A stretch of 11,238 nucleotides of DNA from Candidatus Sigynarchaeum calidifontis (GTDB lineage Archaea > Asgardarchaeota > Lokiarchaeia > Sigyniarchaeales > Sigyniarchaeaceae): the NCBI GenBank assembly GCA_030587475.2, contig JAUQYZ020000051.1, forward strand, positions 1 through 11,238, written 5' to 3'. A program made the position numbers and the translations under genes. This document shows positions 646 through 10,500 of the stretch, in pieces. The notes beneath the pieces are model-generated. The model was given only the letters and a program-made list of their open reading frames with translations. It had not been told where the DNA came from and did not search any database. Each line of letters begins with the position of its first letter. The stretch's first letter is position 1.

Positions 646-1689
646 ATGGACTCGATTAATATCGATGGCGTGCAAATCTTCTTGAGCCACCCGACCACGA
701 TCGACATGGAATGGATTGGGCAACCGGACGTGATGGAGCAGTTACTCGCCGCGTGGGCGACCATTCATGAGGCAGACTTGCCCATGTGCCCCCGGATCCT
801 GGGCCCGCCCGGTTCGGGCAAAACCACCTTGGCCTACGCCGCCGCGAAGAAGATCAACAAGGAGGTCTATATTTTCCAATGTACGTCCGACACGCGGCCC
901 GAGGATCTCATCATCACGCCCGTGCTCGGCTCGAAGCAGGAGATCCGGTACCATGCGAGCCCGCTCGTGACGGCAATGATCAACGGTGCCGTGTGCATCC
1001 TTGACGAGGGCAATCGGATGCCGGAAAAGTCATGGGCTTCGCTCGCTCCTTTGCTCGACCGCCGCCGGTACGTGGAATCGATCCTGGCAGGGGTCCAAAT
1101 CAAGGCACACCCGAACTTCCGCGTCTGCGTCACCATGAACCAGGACGCGTCGGTATTCGAGATCCCCGATTACATCGGCTCCCGCCTCCAGCCAAAGATC
1201 CACGTCACGTTCCCCTCGCGGGAGAACGAGATCGCCATTTTACAGTACAATATCCCCTTCGCACCAAAGGAGGTCATCGATTACGTCGTTGACTTCTTGC
1301 AAAAAGCCCACAAGGCAGACGAGCCCTATTCAGTGAGGGACGGTGTGAACATCACCCGATACATGCTCAAGATGGCCGCCAGCGAACCAAAACCGTTCGA
1401 CAAGGCCCGCCTCGAAGCACACTTCAAGTCTGCCGCGATCATGGTGCTGGATACCGACGCACTGGACGTACTCTCCGGGAAACGCCGCCAGGCGGCACAG
1501 CCGCACGGGGTAGGCACCGGCCAACCGATGTTCCGGCTCAGGGACTTGATCAAGGGATTGGAAGATGCGTCCACGGGCGGCGTCGATGATGATATTGATG
1601 ACGACGAGGACGAAGAAGATTCCTCCGACGTTGAAGAACTGGACAGTGACGGGGATGAAAAACGTCGGTGGCGGAAAAAGAACCAATAA
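646..1689 (+). CDS. MoxR-like AAA+ ATPase (AAA_5; CbbQ/NirQ/YehL-type) with a D/E-rich, basic-tipped C-terminal tail
   Basis: Walker A GPPGSGKT, Walker B CILDEGNR, MoxR-type FQCTSDTRPEDL and HPNFRVCVTMN (sensor I), arginine finger SRL. Confidence 0.9.
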   Translation: MDSINIDGVQIFLSHPTTIDMEWIGQPDVMEQLLAAWATIHEADLPMCPRILGPPGSGKTTLAYAAAKKINKEVYIFQCTSDTRPEDLIITPVLGSKQEIRYHASPLVTAMINGAVCILDEGNRMPEKSWASLAPLLDRRRYVESILAGVQIKAHPNFRVCVTMNQDASVFEIPDYIGSRLQPKIHVTFPSRENEIAILQYNIPFAPKEVIDYVVDFLQKAHKADEPYSVRDGVNITRYMLKMAASEPKPFDKARLEAHFKSAAIMVLDTDALDVLSGKRRQAAQPHGVGTGQPMFRLRDLIKGLEDASTGGVDDDIDDDEDEEDSSDVEELDSDGDEKRRWRKKNQ

Positions 1690-1723
1690 AATGTCGTTCC
1701 CCGGTAAAGCATTCGCGAGAAAC

Positions 1724-1728
1724 AGGTG
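1724..1728 (+). promoter_or_regulatory. Shine-Dalgarno-like AGGTG before the 704-aa gene
   Basis: AGGTG ends 8 nt before ATG 1737, consistent with an operon-internal gene. Confidence 0.5.
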
Positions 1729-1736
1729 GCACATAA

Positions 1737-3851
1737 ATGGGCGACGCGACCGTGAGGATCCTTCCCGTGTATCACGGCAAGATCACATTCGCCAAGATCG
1801 CCACCGACACGATCACCAACTTCGATCCGGACATCATTGCCATCGAGCTTCCATCTGACTTGAAGGAAATATTTATCACCGCGGTGAAGCGCCTCCCGGT
1901 CTTGTCTATCGTCGGATACATCGAGAGGAACCGCGAACCGCGTGCAGGAACCGGCCCAACACCGCCCGCCGGCGATGGAGGGATCCCAGCAGTCGTCCTC
2001 GGCTCGGCATACACGTTCTTGCCTGTGCATCCGGGCGATCCCATGGTCGAAGCAATCCGGCTCGGGATTGAGAGAAACAAGCGGATCGAGTTCATCGATC
2101 TTGTCCTCGATAATTATGACCCGGTTGAATATGCACTTCCGGACGAGGAATGCTTGGAAAAATTTCCCGACTTCATGACTTTCCAGGAACTCGTCTTGGC
2201 GCACTTGCCAAGGAGTGGTAAGGGCAGCGTGGACTACGACCGCGAGTTATGTATGGCCTCCCGGGTCATGGATCTCGCTCAGGAGGGCAAGAAAGTATTG
2301 TGTATCGCTGGTTTTGCCCACTGCGCTCGCCTCAAGGAATTCATCGAGGCGAAAACGCGGGTCGACGTCGCCGATCTGGCAACCCACAAGTACCAACAGA
2401 TCTTCAACGTTGCCCCGGTGTCCTCTGATCTGGTCATCGAGGAGATCCCGTACATCGAATACCTCTACGAGCTCGCGCGGGATGTACGGGCGCGAAACGA
2501 GCCGCTGCAATCCATCGTCGATCGCGTGGTAGCAGCCAAGTTCGATTTTTTCAAGGCAAGCGAAAGGTTCTTCCAGCAGGGCCCAGGATCGAAGGATGAA
2601 GAGGCTTCTTCTGGAACTGGTGACGCGTCGGGTACAAGCGTGCCAACAGAGGAGGCAATCGACGACCGGTGGATCGAGGTGCTGAAACGCGTCACGCGGG
2701 TGGAGGTCGACGCGTTCGATCGCGAGCCCTACACGCGCAAGGCTGCCTTGTCACTCCTCTTTGCGACGACCAATCTCATCTACGAGGAGTACTACTTCCG
2801 AGAGCCCGTGTCAGCCCTTAAATCGAGGTCGATGATGCAATACTTGCGTAACTGGGCAGCAATTCGCGAGCGGCTCTTCCCCGGCCTCGATCAGGTCGCC
2901 TTGACGGCTAAAAATTTCGTTAACGAGGAATATGCGAGTATTCTACTCGATTTCGCACGCATGTACCCTTTCATTGATACGCACGACGAATATCCCGCCG
3001 TGTATCACGATGCGCGGTTCCAGCTTCTCGGTCCGAATAGCATTTTGTTCAAGAATCGCCAATCATCCCGACATCGATCCTGGATCCAGCTTCCGATCAA
3101 GCGGCGTCCCATGCAGCGATATCCTGGCGAGTGGCGGGACGCGTGGAATAAATGGAGTCTCGGCTTGTGCTCGTTCCCGCCTGAAGACAAGATAGAAGAG
3201 GATTTTTTCAATTCCATGAGGGTAAAAACCATCCAGATCCTCGAGGAGAAACACGTCAAGATCCACGAGTTCAAGGATTCGTTGATGGACGGGGTCGAGT
3301 TCCGCGAAACTTTGCGAAAAAGATTGCTCAACAAGCTATACGTTAAAGAAATAATGCCAGTTATAGGAAAAGCAGGAAGTGTCGTTATCGTGTTCGATCC
3401 CGACGAGATCAAGCACCGATACGACAACAAGATCACGTGGTGGGCGGAACACGATCAGGAATCGGACATGGCGTTCTATGCAACTTTTCCCGAGGAGAAC
3501 CTCATCGGCCCGGGCATCGCGCGCATCGAACTTGGCGGGCTAGTTTCCATTTTCCCGCCGAGGCACGTGCCGGATATCTGGAGATTGTATGACGAGAATT
3601 TCACTTCCTTGAAGAAACACGAGATATTGGTAATCGCGGCTATGGATTTTTCGGAGGAAAAATTCATCCCCTACGTTGCAGCCAACCCGCCATCCAGACA
3701 CATGGAAAGGCTCGCCGCGGAACGTAACAAGGTGTTGGTCCATATACCCATTTGGAAGCTGAGTGGGGAAACGCTCGACCGGGTACGATTCATCCACGTG
3801 CTCCGCGGGAAAGCCGTCCGTGCGTACGCGAAGGATTACATATTCCTCTGA
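1737..3851 (+). CDS. Uncharacterised MoxR-associated protein; N-terminal TraB/TIKI/YehM(DUF5682)-like domain and C-terminal domain of unknown function
   Basis: 704-aa ORF 47 nt downstream of the ATPase, with an SD-like site. Motifs ILPVYHG, DPDIIAIELP, IEFIDL, DRELCMA and VLCIAGFAH follow the order and spacing of the TraB/TIKI/ChaN/EreA-like superfamily. The family call comes from motif recognition only. Confidence 0.7.
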   Translation: MGDATVRILPVYHGKITFAKIATDTITNFDPDIIAIELPSDLKEIFITAVKRLPVLSIVGYIERNREPRAGTGPTPPAGDGGIPAVVLGSAYTFLPVHPGDPMVEAIRLGIERNKRIEFIDLVLDNYDPVEYALPDEECLEKFPDFMTFQELVLAHLPRSGKGSVDYDRELCMASRVMDLAQEGKKVLCIAGFAHCARLKEFIEAKTRVDVADLATHKYQQIFNVAPVSSDLVIEEIPYIEYLYELARDVRARNEPLQSIVDRVVAAKFDFFKASERFFQQGPGSKDEEASSGTGDASGTSVPTEEAIDDRWIEVLKRVTRVEVDAFDREPYTRKAALSLLFATTNLIYEEYYFREPVSALKSRSMMQYLRNWAAIRERLFPGLDQVALTAKNFVNEEYASILLDFARMYPFIDTHDEYPAVYHDARFQLLGPNSILFKNRQSSRHRSWIQLPIKRRPMQRYPGEWRDAWNKWSLGLCSFPPEDKIEEDFFNSMRVKTIQILEEKHVKIHEFKDSLMDGVEFRETLRKRLLNKLYVKEIMPVIGKAGSVVIVFDPDEIKHRYDNKITWWAEHDQESDMAFYATFPEENLIGPGIARIELGGLVSIFPPRHVPDIWRLYDENFTSLKKHEILVIAAMDFSEEKFIPYVAANPPSRHMERLAAERNKVLVHIPIWKLSGETLDRVRFIHVLRGKAVRAYAKDYIFL

Positions 3852-3863
3852 ACCGACGACGGA

Positions 3864-4697
3864 TCATGACGGCCTCGGGTCAACGGGCTTAATCCCCTGG
3901 GCCACGAGGTCTCTTATGAACCCCTTCAGCTCCAAGAAGCCGCACTCTTCGGCTTTCATGAAGCAAAACAGCCTTTCCGCCTTTTTTCCTGCCTTACCAA
4001 GGACATTACCGAGATTATACCAGAGTTCCTCATCAGATGGTTTCACACAGACAGCCTTGATGTGCCACGAGACAGCAGCATTCAGATCATTTCGAGCGTC
4101 GCTCACGATGCCGAGATTGTTGAGAGCAGACGCATTGGCAGGATCTACCTCGATTGCACGGCTGAAATACTACTCGGCATTTGAAATATCACCAGCCTTG
4201 AACGCGTTCATGCTAAGATTCGTGATGACCTCTGACAAGGCTTTACCCTCGCAACATTGTAGAGCAGCCTCGAAAGCGATTGCGGCTCTATCGTGCTCGC
4301 CCTTGATGAATAATAAGTTTCCGAGCGTTATCCGTGCGAGCACGTTCCAACCGAGTCGATTGATGCTTTCCATTAGATGCATCTCTGCTTCGCCGAGAGA
4401 ACCTGCTTGGTAATGCTTGTATCCAACGATATACTCACCCATGCTTTCGTCGATCGCATCAAGGCTTGTATCTCTGGAATTTAACGCATTTTCACTCGCC
4501 CGGCTCTTCATCATTGCTTTCAAGGCATGTAAGTCTGCAAGCAGCCCCCATACGCGCATGATGGATGTCTTTTCGTGCAATTTACGCTTGATCTCGTCGA
4601 TGCGTTCCTTGATAGCGGTGATCTCTTCGTCATCGCCGCTTGACCCGGTAGGGGGGTCGCATGATCGCCGCCGTGCTCCGGGCATCCTTAATTTCAT
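3864..4697 (-). CDS. Tetratricopeptide-repeat protein (about 5 TPRs, 277 codons) with one in-frame TAG at 4172-4170 (read-through or recent pseudogene)
   Basis: Track ORFs 4170..4697 and 3864..4106 share one frame. The intervening codons read *YFSRAIEVDPANASALNNLGIV, which complete a 34-aa TPR and begin the next. Confidence 0.85.
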
Positions 4698-4800: not shown

Positions 4801-5526
4801 ATGGAGAAACGAGCAGTCGTCACGCTGTGCATTGGCGACAAGGCTGACGCTTTCGGGAGATATTCCCACGTGCCGATGAAGGCATACGCTGACAAGGTGG
4901 GCGCGGACTTCATCAAGCTCGATAAACGACGTGTCAATTTCTTCGCTGCAAAAAAGTTCAACCCGATCTTGTTTGAAAAATACCAGGTCTACGACGTGCT
5001 TGGCACGTATGATCGAGTGCTTTTCCTCGATACGGACATACTTGTTACACCACATGCGCCGGATATTTTCAACTATGTGCCATTTGATAAAATCGGCGGG
5101 GTATTCGAGGATTTCGGCACGGAGCTGGAGCACCGGCGCAGCTTGATAGTGAAGGTACAAGAAGTGCTCGGTGATGTAAACTGGGTGGAAGGTTTTCTGA
5201 ACTCTGGTGTCTTCGTCGTTTCTAAACTACATCGAGAGGTCTTCCATTTGTACCAGAAGTATGGGTTTTATGATGGCTGTTATGAACAGACCAATACGAA
5301 CTGGTACATGCATAAAGCGGGCTTTCCACCCGTGAACATCGATTGGCGTTTCAATTTTATGGGAATCATGCGCATCTATTATGGACCCGTGCATCGCGAT
5401 GCATTCTTCATCCATTACGCAGGGACAGGCGGCTTGTTCCCATGGGTGCCCAGGGTGGACCAGATGCGGAACGATTATGAATTCTTCTACGAGCACAAGG
5501 ATGTGAAATCGTTCGAGGAATTATAA
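4801..5526 (+). CDS. GT-A fold glycosyltransferase, GT8-like
   Basis: YDRVLFLDTDILV (DxD motif), FLNSGVFV, EQ, WRFNF and FIHYAG are the GT8/glycogenin-type motifs, in the expected order. Confidence 0.85.
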   Translation: MEKRAVVTLCIGDKADAFGRYSHVPMKAYADKVGADFIKLDKRRVNFFAAKKFNPILFEKYQVYDVLGTYDRVLFLDTDILVTPHAPDIFNYVPFDKIGGVFEDFGTELEHRRSLIVKVQEVLGDVNWVEGFLNSGVFVVSKLHREVFHLYQKYGFYDGCYEQTNTNWYMHKAGFPPVNIDWRFNFMGIMRIYYGPVHRDAFFIHYAGTGGLFPWVPRVDQMRNDYEFFYEHKDVKSFEEL

Positions 5527-5557
5527 GTGAAAAAACTCTATCAAGAGTAAAAATTGC

Positions 5558-5980
5558 TCACGTGACAGTAAATCGGATGAAGAATTCGATAGGACGATCT
5601 TGATATATTTTCACCGTGAGCTTGTGCTCCTCGCCGACCTTCCAGCCGGGGTTCGGTACCCATACGATATATTGCTCACCCCGATCGACCTTCACTCCGA
5701 TGGTAGATTTGTAATTGTCCTTGTCGTATTTTTTACCCTTTGCTTCCACCATGAACTTTTCCCAGACCGGGGGATTACCCTTGCCCGCGATAACTTTACC
5801 ATTTTCGTCGATGAAATCGAAATGGTTATTCGGGCTATCATCCGGCAAGCTTTTAACCTCTATGGGGCTAATCACGTTGTTGACCGTGATCTTCAAATAC
5901 TCGACACCATTGTACGTTTCAATTTTAAAGGCATCATCACGAAACATTTTTTTCAAATAGATCTTCGCAATATAGCTCAT
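5558..5980 (-). CDS. Hypothetical protein, 140 aa, soluble and probably beta-rich
   Basis: Protein-like composition with alternating hydrophobic strands (YLKITV, YIVWVP, HKLTVKI, FFIRFTV). It fills the gap between its neighbours without overlap. I recognise no catalytic motif. Confidence 0.75.
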   Translation of the reverse strand: MSYIAKIYLKKMFRDDAFKIETYNGVEYLKITVNNVISPIEVKSLPDDSPNNHFDFIDENGKVIAGKGNPPVWEKFMVEAKGKKYDKDNYKSTIGVKVDRGEQYIVWVPNPGWKVGEEHKLTVKIYQDRPIEFFIRFTVT

Positions 5981-6123
5981 TCTTTTTCACTTATCTTTTT
6001 TATTTTTGTAGATATGGTTCTTTCCATCAGCATCATGGATGATGGTAATGATTGATCTTAGATATATTTTGCACGCTTAAAAAAGGCTAGTCTGCGTTTT
6101 AAAATAGAAGGGAAAGAATATCT

Positions 6124-6138
6124 CGAAAACTTTTTTTG
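6124..6138 (+). promoter_or_regulatory. Candidate BRE/TATA-like element for a leaderless Ubl-GDPD transcript
   Basis: CGAAAAC followed by a T7 tract, about 25-38 nt upstream of ATG 6162, within an AT-rich divergent intergenic region. The match to a TATA consensus is imperfect. Confidence 0.25.
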
Positions 6139-6161
6139 TTCACGGTACCATAACGAGCTCA

Positions 6162-6446
6162 ATGTGCGCGAAAGTCAAGCTCCACCTCCTAAACATCTTC
6201 CGGCTGGAACTCAAGCGGCAATACATCGACATGGAAGCAAACAGTATCCGGGATGTTCTGAGCACGTTTGAAAAGGAATACCTCGGCAAGCTCCCCGAAT
6301 ATTTGAAAACGAAGGATCAAAAGCATCTCACGGAACATGTCCTTATATTGCTAAATGGCGCGAACGTGAAAAACCTAGACGATTCGGAGACGGCCCTTCA
6401 CGATGGTGATGAGATCCAGCTCTCCGTGCCAATCATCGGGGGATGA
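6162..6446 (+). CDS. MoaD/ThiS/SAMP-family ubiquitin-like beta-grasp protein
   Basis: 94 aa with SIRDVL, VLILLNG, LHDGDEIQL and a free C-terminal Gly-Gly (PIIGG-stop). Confidence 0.9.
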   Translation: MCAKVKLHLLNIFRLELKRQYIDMEANSIRDVLSTFEKEYLGKLPEYLKTKDQKHLTEHVLILLNGANVKNLDDSETALHDGDEIQLSVPIIGG

Positions 6447-7171
6447 AGGCAGTGGGCATTAAACGAAAGATTTTCTTGTCTGGCCACCGTGGGTACAAGG
6501 ACTGTGAGATCGAGAACTCGTTGAAGGCATTCCAGCGAGCTATCGATGAAAAAATTGACTTCGTCGAGTTCGACGTGAAAAAAACAAGCGACGACGTGCT
6601 GGTCGTGTACCACGACGAGCGACTAACCCGGTTACTTCACGTGAACAAGCGGATAGGAAAAGTTTCATGGAAAATGTTGCAAGGGTATGCATACGACGAT
6701 GGACAGCACGTGCTATGCCTCGACGATTTTTTCACCGCGTGCAAGGGAAAGATCAAGTTCATGCTCGAGATAAAGGCCGGTGGCATTGAAAAGCAGCTTT
6801 TAAACCTCGTCGAAAAGCACGGTCTCGAGAACAGCATCATCATCCAGAGTTTCAACGGCCGATACATCAAGAAGTGCCATTCCTTGAGGCCAGATCTCGC
6901 CTACGGATTGTGCATTGGCTTGGCAAGGGGTACTTTTTCCTATCATTATCTGGTGCAACCGTATCCCGTCACCTATCTCAACATAGATGGCCCGCTCGTC
7001 GACGACCGGTTTGTAAAATCGTGTGTAAAAAACGGAAAAAAGATCATCCTCGGCTCAAGGAACACGTGGGAATATCTCGACAAGATCGAGCCATGGAACG
7101 TTGAGATCATCAACGCAGACAATCCTGCGCGCATCAAGCAGCTACTCATCGAGCGCCACTACGATTTTTAA
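6443..7171 (+). CDS. Glycerophosphodiester phosphodiesterase (GDPD, GlpQ/UgpQ family)
   Basis: GHRG, ENSLKAF, VEFDVKKTSDDVLVVYHD, MLEIK, IIQSFN and INADNP motifs. ATGA overlap with the upstream gene. Confidence 0.92.
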   Translation: MKAVGIKRKIFLSGHRGYKDCEIENSLKAFQRAIDEKIDFVEFDVKKTSDDVLVVYHDERLTRLLHVNKRIGKVSWKMLQGYAYDDGQHVLCLDDFFTACKGKIKFMLEIKAGGIEKQLLNLVEKHGLENSIIIQSFNGRYIKKCHSLRPDLAYGLCIGLARGTFSYHYLVQPYPVTYLNIDGPLVDDRFVKSCVKNGKKIILGSRNTWEYLDKIEPWNVEIINADNPARIKQLLIERHYDF

Positions 7172-7208
7172 CCGGGACGAGCCGCGTGCCAATCAGTTTT
7201 CGTGATTG

Positions 7209-7216
7209 CTTAAATA
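7209..7216 (+). promoter_or_regulatory. Candidate TATA box for rpoH-rpoB
   Basis: CTTAAATA about 70 nt upstream of the rpoH ATG in the intergenic region. Confidence 0.3.
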
Positions 7217-7283
7217 TTCGAGCCACACTTTCGAACTCCAAACCCGCTTTTTTACCTAGTCAGCAAATTGACCAGGGATCGAG

Positions 7284-7553
7284 ATGGCCAAGAAAGTCAA
7301 GCGAAAGTTCAAGAAGATTGACATCACCCGGCACGAGCTTGTCCCTAAGCACATCATCATGAGCAAGGAAGAGGTGGCGGAGCTTCTCGCTAAATTCAAG
7401 ATCAATCTCGTGAAACTCCCACGTATCTCCATTGACGACCCAGTGATCCAGATGTTAGGTGGAAAAATCAATGACGTGGTACGCATCATCCGAAAGAGTG
7501 AAACAAGTGTTGACTCGTCTGAATATTACCGCTTTGTCGTAAAAATGGCGTGA
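7284..7553 (+). CDS. rpoH: DNA-directed RNA polymerase subunit Rpo5 (H)
   Basis: HELVPKH, LPRI..DDPV, DVVRIIRKSET and YYRFV motifs; located immediately upstream of rpoB. Confidence 0.97.
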   Translation: MAKKVKRKFKKIDITRHELVPKHIIMSKEEVAELLAKFKINLVKLPRISIDDPVIQMLGGKINDVVRIIRKSETSVDSSEYYRFVVKMA

Positions 7554-7562
7554 TATTATCAT

Positions 7563-7567
7563 GGTGA
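7563..7567 (+). promoter_or_regulatory. Shine-Dalgarno GGTGA for rpoB
   Basis: GGTGA ends 4 nt before ATG 7572. Confidence 0.6.
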
Positions 7568-7571
7568 TTAC

Positions 7572-10500
7572 ATGGCATCCACCAAGACCGTAGCATTCGA
7601 AAAAAATGATATCTGGGATCTTCTCAAAGCATTTTTCGATGAAAAAGGACTTGTTCGACAACATTTGGACTCTTACAACGATTTTATCGAACATCAGCTC
7701 CAGGAGATCGTGGACGAGGTTGGCGAGGTTCTCCCAGACATACCTGGCTTTCAGATAAAATTCGGCAAGATAAAGATAGAGAAACCCCAGATACGTGAAG
7801 CGGATGGCGCTCTCAAGGAGATCACGCCATTCCACGCCCGCGTCCGTGATCTCACCTATGCCGCAGATATCAAGCTGGAGATGATCGCCATTAACATCGA
7901 CGAGCGCACGCAATCCCCTCAAGAGGATGAACCCGAGGAAATATTCATCGGCAAGCTTCCCATCATGCTCAAGTCGAATAAATGCCCCATGGCGACCATG
8001 AACGATAACGCTCTCATTAGCATCGGCGAAGATCCGCTAGACGTGGGTGGATATTTCATAATAAATGGCACCGAGCGCGTGCTCGTCACCCAAGAAGATC
8101 TCGCCCCGAACACGATTTTAATAGACGAGGCGAGCTCTAGTAGCAGTTCCACACATATAGCTAAGGTGTTTTCCACAACAAAGGGCTTCCGTGCTCCGGT
8201 TACGATAGAACGCCGAAAAGATGGCACGCTTAGGGTATCGTTTCCATCGGTTCCTGGTAAGATACCATTTGCCGTGCTCATGCGCGCGCTGGGGCTTGCT
8301 ACCGACCGGGAGATAATCAATGCAGTCTCCGATCATGAGGAAGTTATCCGAGCAATGCTGCCTGTCGTGGAGGTTGCAGCGTCGCTCAACATCACGAAGG
8401 ATAGCAAGGATCCACAGAAATCAAAAGAAAATGCCCTGGATTATATCGGCAAGCGCGTTGCTGTCGGCCAGACACGAAAGTTCCGGATCCAACGCGCAGA
8501 ACAAGTGCTCGATAAGTATCTTTTACCCCACATCGGAGACGCACCGGAGGACCGGGTCAAGAAAGCTTATTATCTCGGCCAGATGGCACAGAAGATCCTC
8601 GAGCTTGCTCTTAATATGCGCAAGCCCGACGACAAGGATCATTACGCTAATAAAAGACTCAAGCTCGCTGGTGACTTGTTTGCAAGCCTTTTTCGCGTGG
8701 CATTCAACAACTTGTGTCGCGATATCAAATACCAGCTGGAACGGACGGCGGTACGAGGCCGAAAACCGAGCATCAAGACGGCAGTCAGAGCCGACGTAAT
8801 TACGGAACGTATCCGCCACGCACTTGCAACCGGGAATTGGGTTGGAGGAAAGGCGGGTGTAAGCCAATTACTCGATCGCAACAATTATATCTCCTCGCTT
8901 TCCCACTTGCGGCGCATCGTCTCGCCGTTAAGCCGGAGCCAGCCCCACTTCGAGGCACGGGACTTGCATCCAACTCAGTGGGGGAAGATCTGCCCGGCTG
9001 AAACCCCCGAAGGGCCAAATTGCGGCCTGGTAAAGAACTTCGGCCTTATCGCCTATGTTTCCATCGGCACGGACGAGAAGAAACTCGAAATCCAACTCCA
9101 GGATTTCGAACTTGTCCCGATCCAAAAAGTTCGCGATGAAAAGCTCAAGGGTACAAATATATTTCTCAACGGGCGGCTTATCGGCATCCATAAAGATCCT
9201 CTCAAGTTCGTGAGCAACGTGCGAGAAGAGCGCCGGAAGGGCAATATCTCCCAAGAGGTAAATATCGGTTTCCGGAAGTATGCGAACGAGGTGCAGATTA
9301 ACTGCGATGCGGGTCGCTCGCGCCGTCCCTTATTCATCGTGGAGAACGGCGAGCTTCTCATAGATAATAACCAGATCAAGAAGATCAAGACGAAAGAATG
9401 GAACTGGTCAGACCTGATCGTTCCTAACGAGCAAGAGCACAAGAAAGGAAAAAAGGCATCGATCGAATATCTCGATGCCGAAGAAGAGGAGAACGCTTAC
9501 ATCGCCATCTACCCGGAGCAAATCACGGCGGAACATACACATTGTGAAATCACGCCGGCTGCGATCCTGGGCATTACGGCATCTCTTATCCCCTTCCCCG
9601 AGCATAACCAATCCCCACGAAATACCTACGAGGCAGGTATGGCAAAACAAGCTCTTGGCGTATTCTCTTCCAACTTCCACTTGCGCCTCGACACGCGCGG
9701 CCACACGCTGCACTATCCCCAGGTACCCCTCGTTGGTACCAAACCCATGGACATCATCGGCTTCGAGCGGAGGCCCGCCGGCCAGAACTTCGTCGTGGCG
9801 GTCTTATCGTACGCGGGGTATAACATCGAGGACGCCCTTATCATCAACAAGGCGTCAATCGAACGAGGCCTCGCGAGGAGTACATTCTTCAGGACCTATG
9901 ACTCGGAAGAGCGCAGGTACCCGGGTGGTCAAGAGGACAAGTTCGAGGTTCCCGATCAGACCGTCCGGGGTTACAAGCCCCAAGAATGCTACCGGCATTT
10001 GTCAGGCGATGGTCTTATCGAGCCCGAGAAAACGGTGGAGGGCGGTGACGTGCTTATCGGAAGAACGTCTCCACCCAGGTTTATCGAAGAGTACAAGGAG
10101 TTTGACGTGCAAACCACGAACCGTAGAGAGACGTCGGTCACGATGCGCCACGGCGAAAGGGGCATCGTTGACACGGTCATCCTCACGGAAACGAAGGACG
10201 GCAACCGTCTCGTTAAGATCAAGGTTCGCGACCAGCGTATCCCCGAACTCGGTGACAAGTTCGCTTCCCGTCACGGTCAAAAAGGAATCGTCGGATTGAT
10301 CATTCCACAAGAGGATATGCCTTTCACTGAAGAAGGTCTCGTGCCAGACTTGCTTATTAATCCTCATGCCATTCCCTCGCGAATGACGCTTGGCCAAATG
10401 CTCGAAACGATTGCAGGCAAAATCGCGGCTGTCACGGGCAAAACATTCGATTCGACTGCATTTTCGCTACGCGACCCCGAGGACATCCAGAATATGCTCA

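Follow-up and report, generated by a model that had tools for sequence, protein, structure and literature searches.

The locus described here contains a TPR-repeat gene interrupted by a single in-frame amber codon, and the question it raises is whether this codon is translated or simply ends translation. The window, by which we mean the whole stretch of DNA analysed, is the complete 11,238-base contig C162 of Candidatus Sigynarchaeum calidifontis genome G000, a 4.99 Mb MAG of 269 contigs with a completeness of 89%, a contamination of 5.2% and a G+C content of 54%. A first-pass annotation, made from the sequence alone, gave most weight to read-through of the pyrrolysine (Pyl) type, with a recent nonsense mutation or a base-call error as alternatives. 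Were TAG decoded here, amber recoding would reach a further Asgard lineage and a protein other than a methyltransferase; the tests presented below say otherwise, and very probably the codon is an ordinary lesion.

The interrupted frame runs from 4697 to 3864 on the minus strand of the window and comprises about 277 codons; it is interrupted by a single stop and closes with TGA (Table 1). Translation bears out the proposal that the two listed ORFs form one reading frame in which the TAG at codon 176 is the only break, and the flanking residues are ...GDISNAE on the upstream side and YFSRAIEVDPAN... on the downstream side. A full 34-aa TPR had been described across the stop, with two intact TPRs after it, and this description is correct in every detail. 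In the N-terminal piece, a disordered segment and a helical hairpin precede the TPRs, of which it includes two and a half; the C-terminal piece contains the remainder of the TPR solenoid and is the most conserved portion of the family. The read-through product (P0001) matches five Pfam TPR models (TPR_11, TPR_17, TPR_1, TPR_8 and TPR_2), of which TPR_2 is matched upstream of the TAG and TPR_11 (2.4e-11) and TPR_17 (1.3e-9) downstream of it. The TGA is 12 nt from the end of a convergently transcribed gene coding for a 704-aa protein.

Table 1. Segments of the interrupted TPR gene (coordinates are those of the window).
Feature	Coordinates	Strand	Evidence
N-terminal piece, codons 1-175	4173..4697	-	ORF listing; TPR_2 match; corresponds to 171-aa database protein P0008
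In-frame TAG, codon 176, B helix of the third TPR	4170..4172	-	Codon read; orthologue codons; AlphaFold2 helix
C-terminal piece, codons 177-277	3867..4169	-	TPR_11 match; separate 80-aa and 60-aa ORFs in other assemblies
TGA, true terminator of the ancestral full-length gene	3864..3866	-	Frame and sequence

A protein database search with the read-through product identified nine full-length orthologues (279-300 aa), with 47-67% identity and 94-100% coverage. The best alignments have 100% coverage and E = 4e-119, and because the read-through product aligns end to end with these proteins, chance cannot reasonably account for its continuity across the stop. The named orthologues are annotated as Candidatus Sigynarchaeum springense, Sigynarchaeota or Lokiarchaeota archaeon, and in the database search the family was seen only in Sigynarchaeota/Lokiarchaeia-type MAGs and metagenomes. 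Alignment of orthologues had been suggested as a check, and the relatives do have Lys or Glu at the site: the codon is AAA in two loci (L024 and L025) and GAA in two others (L026 and L027), and a fifth has CGA (L013). Among the orthologues as a whole, the residue aligned with codon 176 is Lys, Glu, Arg, Gly or Thr, so that the stop does lie at a variable TPR position, as first described. A change of AAG or GAG to TAG is a single transversion.

The gene order is also shared. A JGI metagenome contig (L025) carries the orthologue with 67% identity, and its neighbours are ordered as in the window, with genes for a MoxR-type AAA+ protein, the 704-aa protein, the convergent TPR protein, a GT8-like protein, a 140-aa ORF, ThiS, GDPD and RpoB. 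The orthologues and the L025 gene order together show that the TPR gene is conserved, syntenic, lineage-specific and intact elsewhere. In this respect the locus has what is expected of a nonsense pseudogene, with intact orthologues, a sense codon at the site in those orthologues, and conserved gene order.

We note that the MoxR-type AAA+ ATPase gene (AAA_5, 1.1e-20) and the gene for the 704-aa protein form a pair, located at 646-3851 on the plus strand of the window and at 4952-7632 on the minus strand of L025. The pair is retained beside the TPR gene in S. springense, where the convergent TPR and 704-aa genes share an overlap of 6 nt. The 704-aa partner has only a weak match to DUF5694 in Pfam.

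A departure from this order is present in a genome of the same family (G002), in which the 704-aa homologue is followed directly by the GT8-like gene (L033, G002:C137:1-3628). The TPR gene is absent from between these two genes, and no orthologue was found in G002, which is 78% complete. With the same neighbours present and the TPR gene missing from between them, it is plausible that the gene is dispensable. The TPR, 704-aa and GT8-like genes were all not found in a genome of the same genus (G001), which is 81% complete and hence uninformative.

An AlphaFold2 model of the read-through product was built from the orthologue alignment (pLDDT 86.9, pTM 0.80), and contains a disordered N-terminus, a helical hairpin at residues 22-67 and a continuous TPR solenoid of paired helices at approximately residues 80-266. 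Codon 176 is within a helix (residues 171-184, pLDDT about 96) that is followed by five further helices. According to the model, a stop at residue 175 would cut the solenoid in the middle of a helix, with loss of the most conserved part of the family. The top Foldseek matches are generic TPR superhelices, including CTPR designs, the OGT/SPINDLY TPR domain, MamA and APC/C subunits (E = 3e-9 to 1e-6, probability 1.0).

The possibility that the two pieces are separate functional genes was also considered, and was rejected as the break is inside a helix of one predicted solenoid. A similar objection applies to the C-terminal piece as a gene of its own, in that the first in-frame start after the TAG is a GTG at 4106, 22 codons downstream.

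If the amber codon were decoded as Pyl, then UAG at codon 176 would be read by PylRS and tRNA-Pyl to give a full-length TPR protein. A lone in-frame TAG with an intact frame downstream is what such decoding would produce, and Pyl machinery, which the first-pass annotation placed in some Asgard lineages, is known in one of them, the Sifarchaeia (PMC9723677; bioRxiv 10.1101/2024.09.30.615893). Asgard Pyl is reported to be limited to a single family (bioRxiv 10.1101/2024.09.30.615893), and a search for the machinery, which had been recommended as a check, did not recover it from this genome. PylS was not found, the best match to the C-terminal model TIGR02367 scoring 32 bits against a cut-off of 178 and corresponding to a PheRS/SepRS-like class II synthetase. 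Searches of the genome for PylD (best score 20.5 bits, cut-off 150) and PylB (best score 30.4 bits, cut-off 348) were similarly negative, and there were zero matches to MttB (PF06253). The Methanosarcina acetivorans control was positive for PylS, PylD, PylB and MttB. PylS was found in none of 41 genomes at E ≤ 1e-10, these being the present genome and 40 others from its order, of which 23 have a completeness of 90% or more. In a genome that is 89% complete a missing gene is not proof by itself, but with PylS missing from all 41, incompleteness is not the likely reason for its absence here. The result is in line with the published restriction of Asgard Pyl to Sifarchaeia.

No tRNA with a CUA anticodon was identified. 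There is none among the 53 tRNAs (one of them a tRNA-Sec) reported by ARAGORN in the genome, and none among 56 matches to the Rfam tRNA model, for which the sub-threshold matches were read by eye; the anticodons of these weak matches are UAG, CAU, GAA, GCA, GUU and UAC, with one unclear. A custom scan of the genome for an anticodon arm together with a T arm gave no CUA candidates, and it recovered the control tRNAs, including an intron-bearing tRNA-Val in the window. A relaxed ARAGORN search (-ps80) returned 7045 calls that were pure noise, and was discarded.

The tRNA-Val (anticodon UAC) is at 373-489 on the minus strand of the window. The acceptor strand at its 5′ end (GGACGAG, near 489-483) is matched by CTCGTCC (near 380-374), TCACG-CTTACAC-CGTGA makes up the anticodon arm, and the T arm, GTGGG-TCCGAAT-CCCAC, is followed by a run of T residues. 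The D-arm region contains an insertion of several tens of nucleotides. This tRNA is missed by ARAGORN, and the Rfam tRNA model scores the 3′ part alone (21.9 bits). A 189-aa open frame at 1-570 on the plus strand overlaps it, has no Pfam match and may be spurious. Elsewhere in the genome there are two tRNA arrays, one with about 20 genes within 6 kb (C212:11600-17720) and one with six within 1.7 kb (C82:46-1703). Such dense arrays are unusual for an archaeal chromosome, and could belong to a mobile element or a virus, or lie on contigs that contaminate the bin (bin contamination 5%).

The pattern of stop codon use across the genome also bears on decoding. ORFs were scored by the log-odds of their codon usage, with the genome itself as the training set, and ranked accordingly; they are thus not gene-finder calls. 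The 3984 coding-like ORFs end in TGA (54.5%), TAA (26.4%) or TAG (19.2%), and the open frame that follows the stop is alike in length and coding quality for all three stop types. With 19.2% of the coding-like ORFs ending in it, TAG is a normal terminator in this genome; Pyl-containing archaea have less than 6% UAG stop usage, as cited by Sun et al. (PMC9723677).

The occurrence of TAG inside genes was evaluated with a local scan, which identifies stops in a start-free vicinity that have 50 stop-free coding-like codons on each side. There are about 60 candidate interrupted genes genome-wide (TAA 19, TGA 22, TAG 20), and these rest on codon usage and not on homology, such that they probably include false positives for all stops alike. 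The count of genes with in-frame TAG that had been proposed as a check, when applied to these coding-like candidates, gives no excess of TAG over TAA or TGA. Among random single-base nonsense changes, the expected share of TAG is 51-54% given the codon usage of the genome, and with 20 TAG candidates there is no enrichment of TAG inside genes. An earlier form of this test, which asked for at least 60 coding-like codons after the stop, was replaced; it was dominated by neighbouring genes in the same frame, and it missed the TPR gene, whose codon-usage score of 0.105 is below the cut-off of 0.13.

The first-pass annotation had allowed that a genome with no Pyl system or suppressor tRNA, normal use of TAG as a terminator, and relatives with residues such as Lys or Glu at the site would indicate a simple pseudogene. 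This is the combination we find: PylS, PylB, PylD and tRNA-CUA were not found in the genome, TAG is a normal stop, and the relatives have Lys or Glu. The headline proposal of Pyl-type read-through is therefore abandoned, and we regard decoding of codon 176 as Pyl as exceedingly improbable.

A tRNA-Sec gene (anticodon UCA) is present in this genome at C88:23669-23761 on the minus strand, and some of the in-frame TGA codons here may accordingly specify selenocysteine. Sec has been reported in Lokiarchaeia (PMC9723677), and the tRNA-Sec agrees with this.

A different concern is that the stop is an artefact of sequencing, assembly or consensus calling, with a real sense codon that appears as TAG through an error or because a minority variant was recorded. 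Consensus assemblies seldom contain substitution errors. Moreover, the 171-aa N-terminal piece (P0008, from the second Met) is present in identical form on four NCBI contigs in the protein database. The contigs with the split gene differ in length and include one of 140,709 bases (the longest), one of 29,016 bases and the 11,238-base contig of the window; the largest contig in the genome analysed here (90,011 bases) is shorter than the 140,709-base contig with the same N-terminal piece. The C-terminal piece is called separately, as an 80-aa ORF (P0030) starting from codon 198 on three contigs and as a 60-aa ORF (P0029) starting from codon 218 on one contig of 29,016 bases, and both match the window exactly except for the start residue. 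The shorter call may come from the use of another gene caller, or from an additional change within codons 177-217 of that assembly.

No intact protein with more than 67% identity was found among the 5.8 billion clusters of the protein database, and thus no intact, near-identical version of the gene. Since the gene is split at the same place in every assembly on record, a private consensus error is unlikely, and the base-call error that was first listed as an alternative loses most of its appeal. We note that the four assemblies, which are identical in protein sequence and are compared through protein records only, may not be independent samples, and the four contigs could stem from the same reads assembled several times. 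Even so, the separate N- and C-terminal pieces on contigs of different lengths make it very unlikely that the TAG is an artefact.

We next consider selection on the segment beyond the stop. Relative to the S. springense orthologue, dN/dS is 0.25 upstream of the TAG and 0.095 downstream. The ratio of downstream to upstream protein divergence is 0.72 for the gene in the window and 0.58-0.98 (mean 0.75) for pairs of intact orthologues, and, among the conserved columns, 8 of 67 upstream and 7 of 61 downstream carry a private substitution. Relaxed selection or decay after the TAG was thus not detected, with 101 codons remaining open, a dN/dS of 0.095 and no excess of private substitutions. With no detectable decay, the mutation would be very recent relative to the divergence between species. 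The downstream constraint fits a very recent mutation and fits continued translation equally well, and this result alone cannot separate them; the missing decay is compatible with a very young nonsense pseudogene.

Continued translation could occur independently of Pyl if a near-cognate tRNA (for example Lys-CUU, Gln-CUG, Glu-CUC or Tyr-GUA) occasionally decodes UAG, with selection keeping the downstream part, and this leaky read-through is the only non-trivial reading left. It would account for the 101 open codons with no sign of relaxed constraint, and for a stop that is common to all four assemblies on record with no intact allele seen. The site is variable and solvent-exposed, and as K, G, T, R and E are all tolerated there, whichever residue was inserted at codon 176 should be acceptable. 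Several observations argue against it. No PYLIS-like structure, or other RNA structure that would promote read-through, is indicated after the TAG, as the RNA there folds no better than shuffled sequence (z = 0.24), and we know of no read-through signal specific to the codon 176 site. The four assemblies are identical at the protein level, so there has been too little time for visible decay in any event; all three in-frame stops are similarly numerous, as ordinary lesions would be; and the related genome G002 lacks the gene. Leaky read-through is thus unlikely. A stronger form of it, in which the amber codon is kept as a fixed feature because useful Pyl-independent read-through gives a short 175-aa and a full 277-aa TPR form from one gene, is quite unlikely.

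A simple explanation, and the one we prefer at a probability of about 0.85, is that codon 176 is an ordinary recent nonsense allele in the TPR gene, which would make this a young pseudogene and not a case of genetic-code recoding. The recent nonsense mutation that the first-pass annotation offered as its alternative is therefore the part of it that stands, supported by the intact orthologues with Lys or Glu and by the use of TAG as a normal stop. In this Asgard archaeon, which is related to Sigynarchaeum, the gene would code for a TPR scaffold protein of about 277 aa that is specific to the lineage, and one base substitution would have created TAG from a sense codon at a variable surface position in the third TPR. 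The ancestral codon would most simply have been a Lys (AAG or AAA) or Glu (GAG or GAA) codon. As TAG is an ordinary stop here, translation is expected to end at residue 175 in mid-helix, with loss of the C-terminal 101 residues. The outcome would be a young pseudogene or a truncated loss-of-function allele present throughout the sampled population of the species, and we infer a lack of function for the truncated product and a recent origin for the mutation.

For annotation, a single in-frame TAG in this MAG should be treated as an ordinary lesion and the standard code retained in gene calling; the gene itself can be annotated as a disrupted TPR-repeat protein. Comparison of the counts of the three stops with the mutational expectation may be reusable for triage of other amber flags in the genome.

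Three types of known system provide a context for this locus. The first are the TPR superhelix proteins (CTPR, OGT/SPINDLY, MamA and APC/C subunits), which the read-through product resembles in its predicted continuous TPR solenoid, and from which this family differs by an N-terminal helical hairpin of its own and by the strong conservation of a C-terminal motif region. The second are the Pyl systems. Amber recoding by pylTSBCD is known from Methanosarcinales, Methanomassiliicoccales and, within the Asgard archaea, Sifarchaeia, and the likeness is confined to an in-frame TAG within an otherwise intact archaeal gene. In contrast to the Pyl systems, PylRS, PylB, PylD, tRNA-Pyl and MttB were not found in this genome, nor PylRS in 40 relatives; TAG often serves as a terminator, the protein is a TPR scaffold rather than a methyltransferase, and no RNA element follows the TAG. 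The third are the single-lesion nonsense pseudogenes of prokaryotes. The TPR gene departs from typical examples of these in that downstream decay is as yet undetectable and that the lesion is deduced from the protein records of four assemblies. It otherwise resembles them, with one in-frame stop at a site that is a sense codon in orthologues, an otherwise intact gene, a stop that is a normal terminator in the genome, and a gene that appears to be dispensable in a related lineage.
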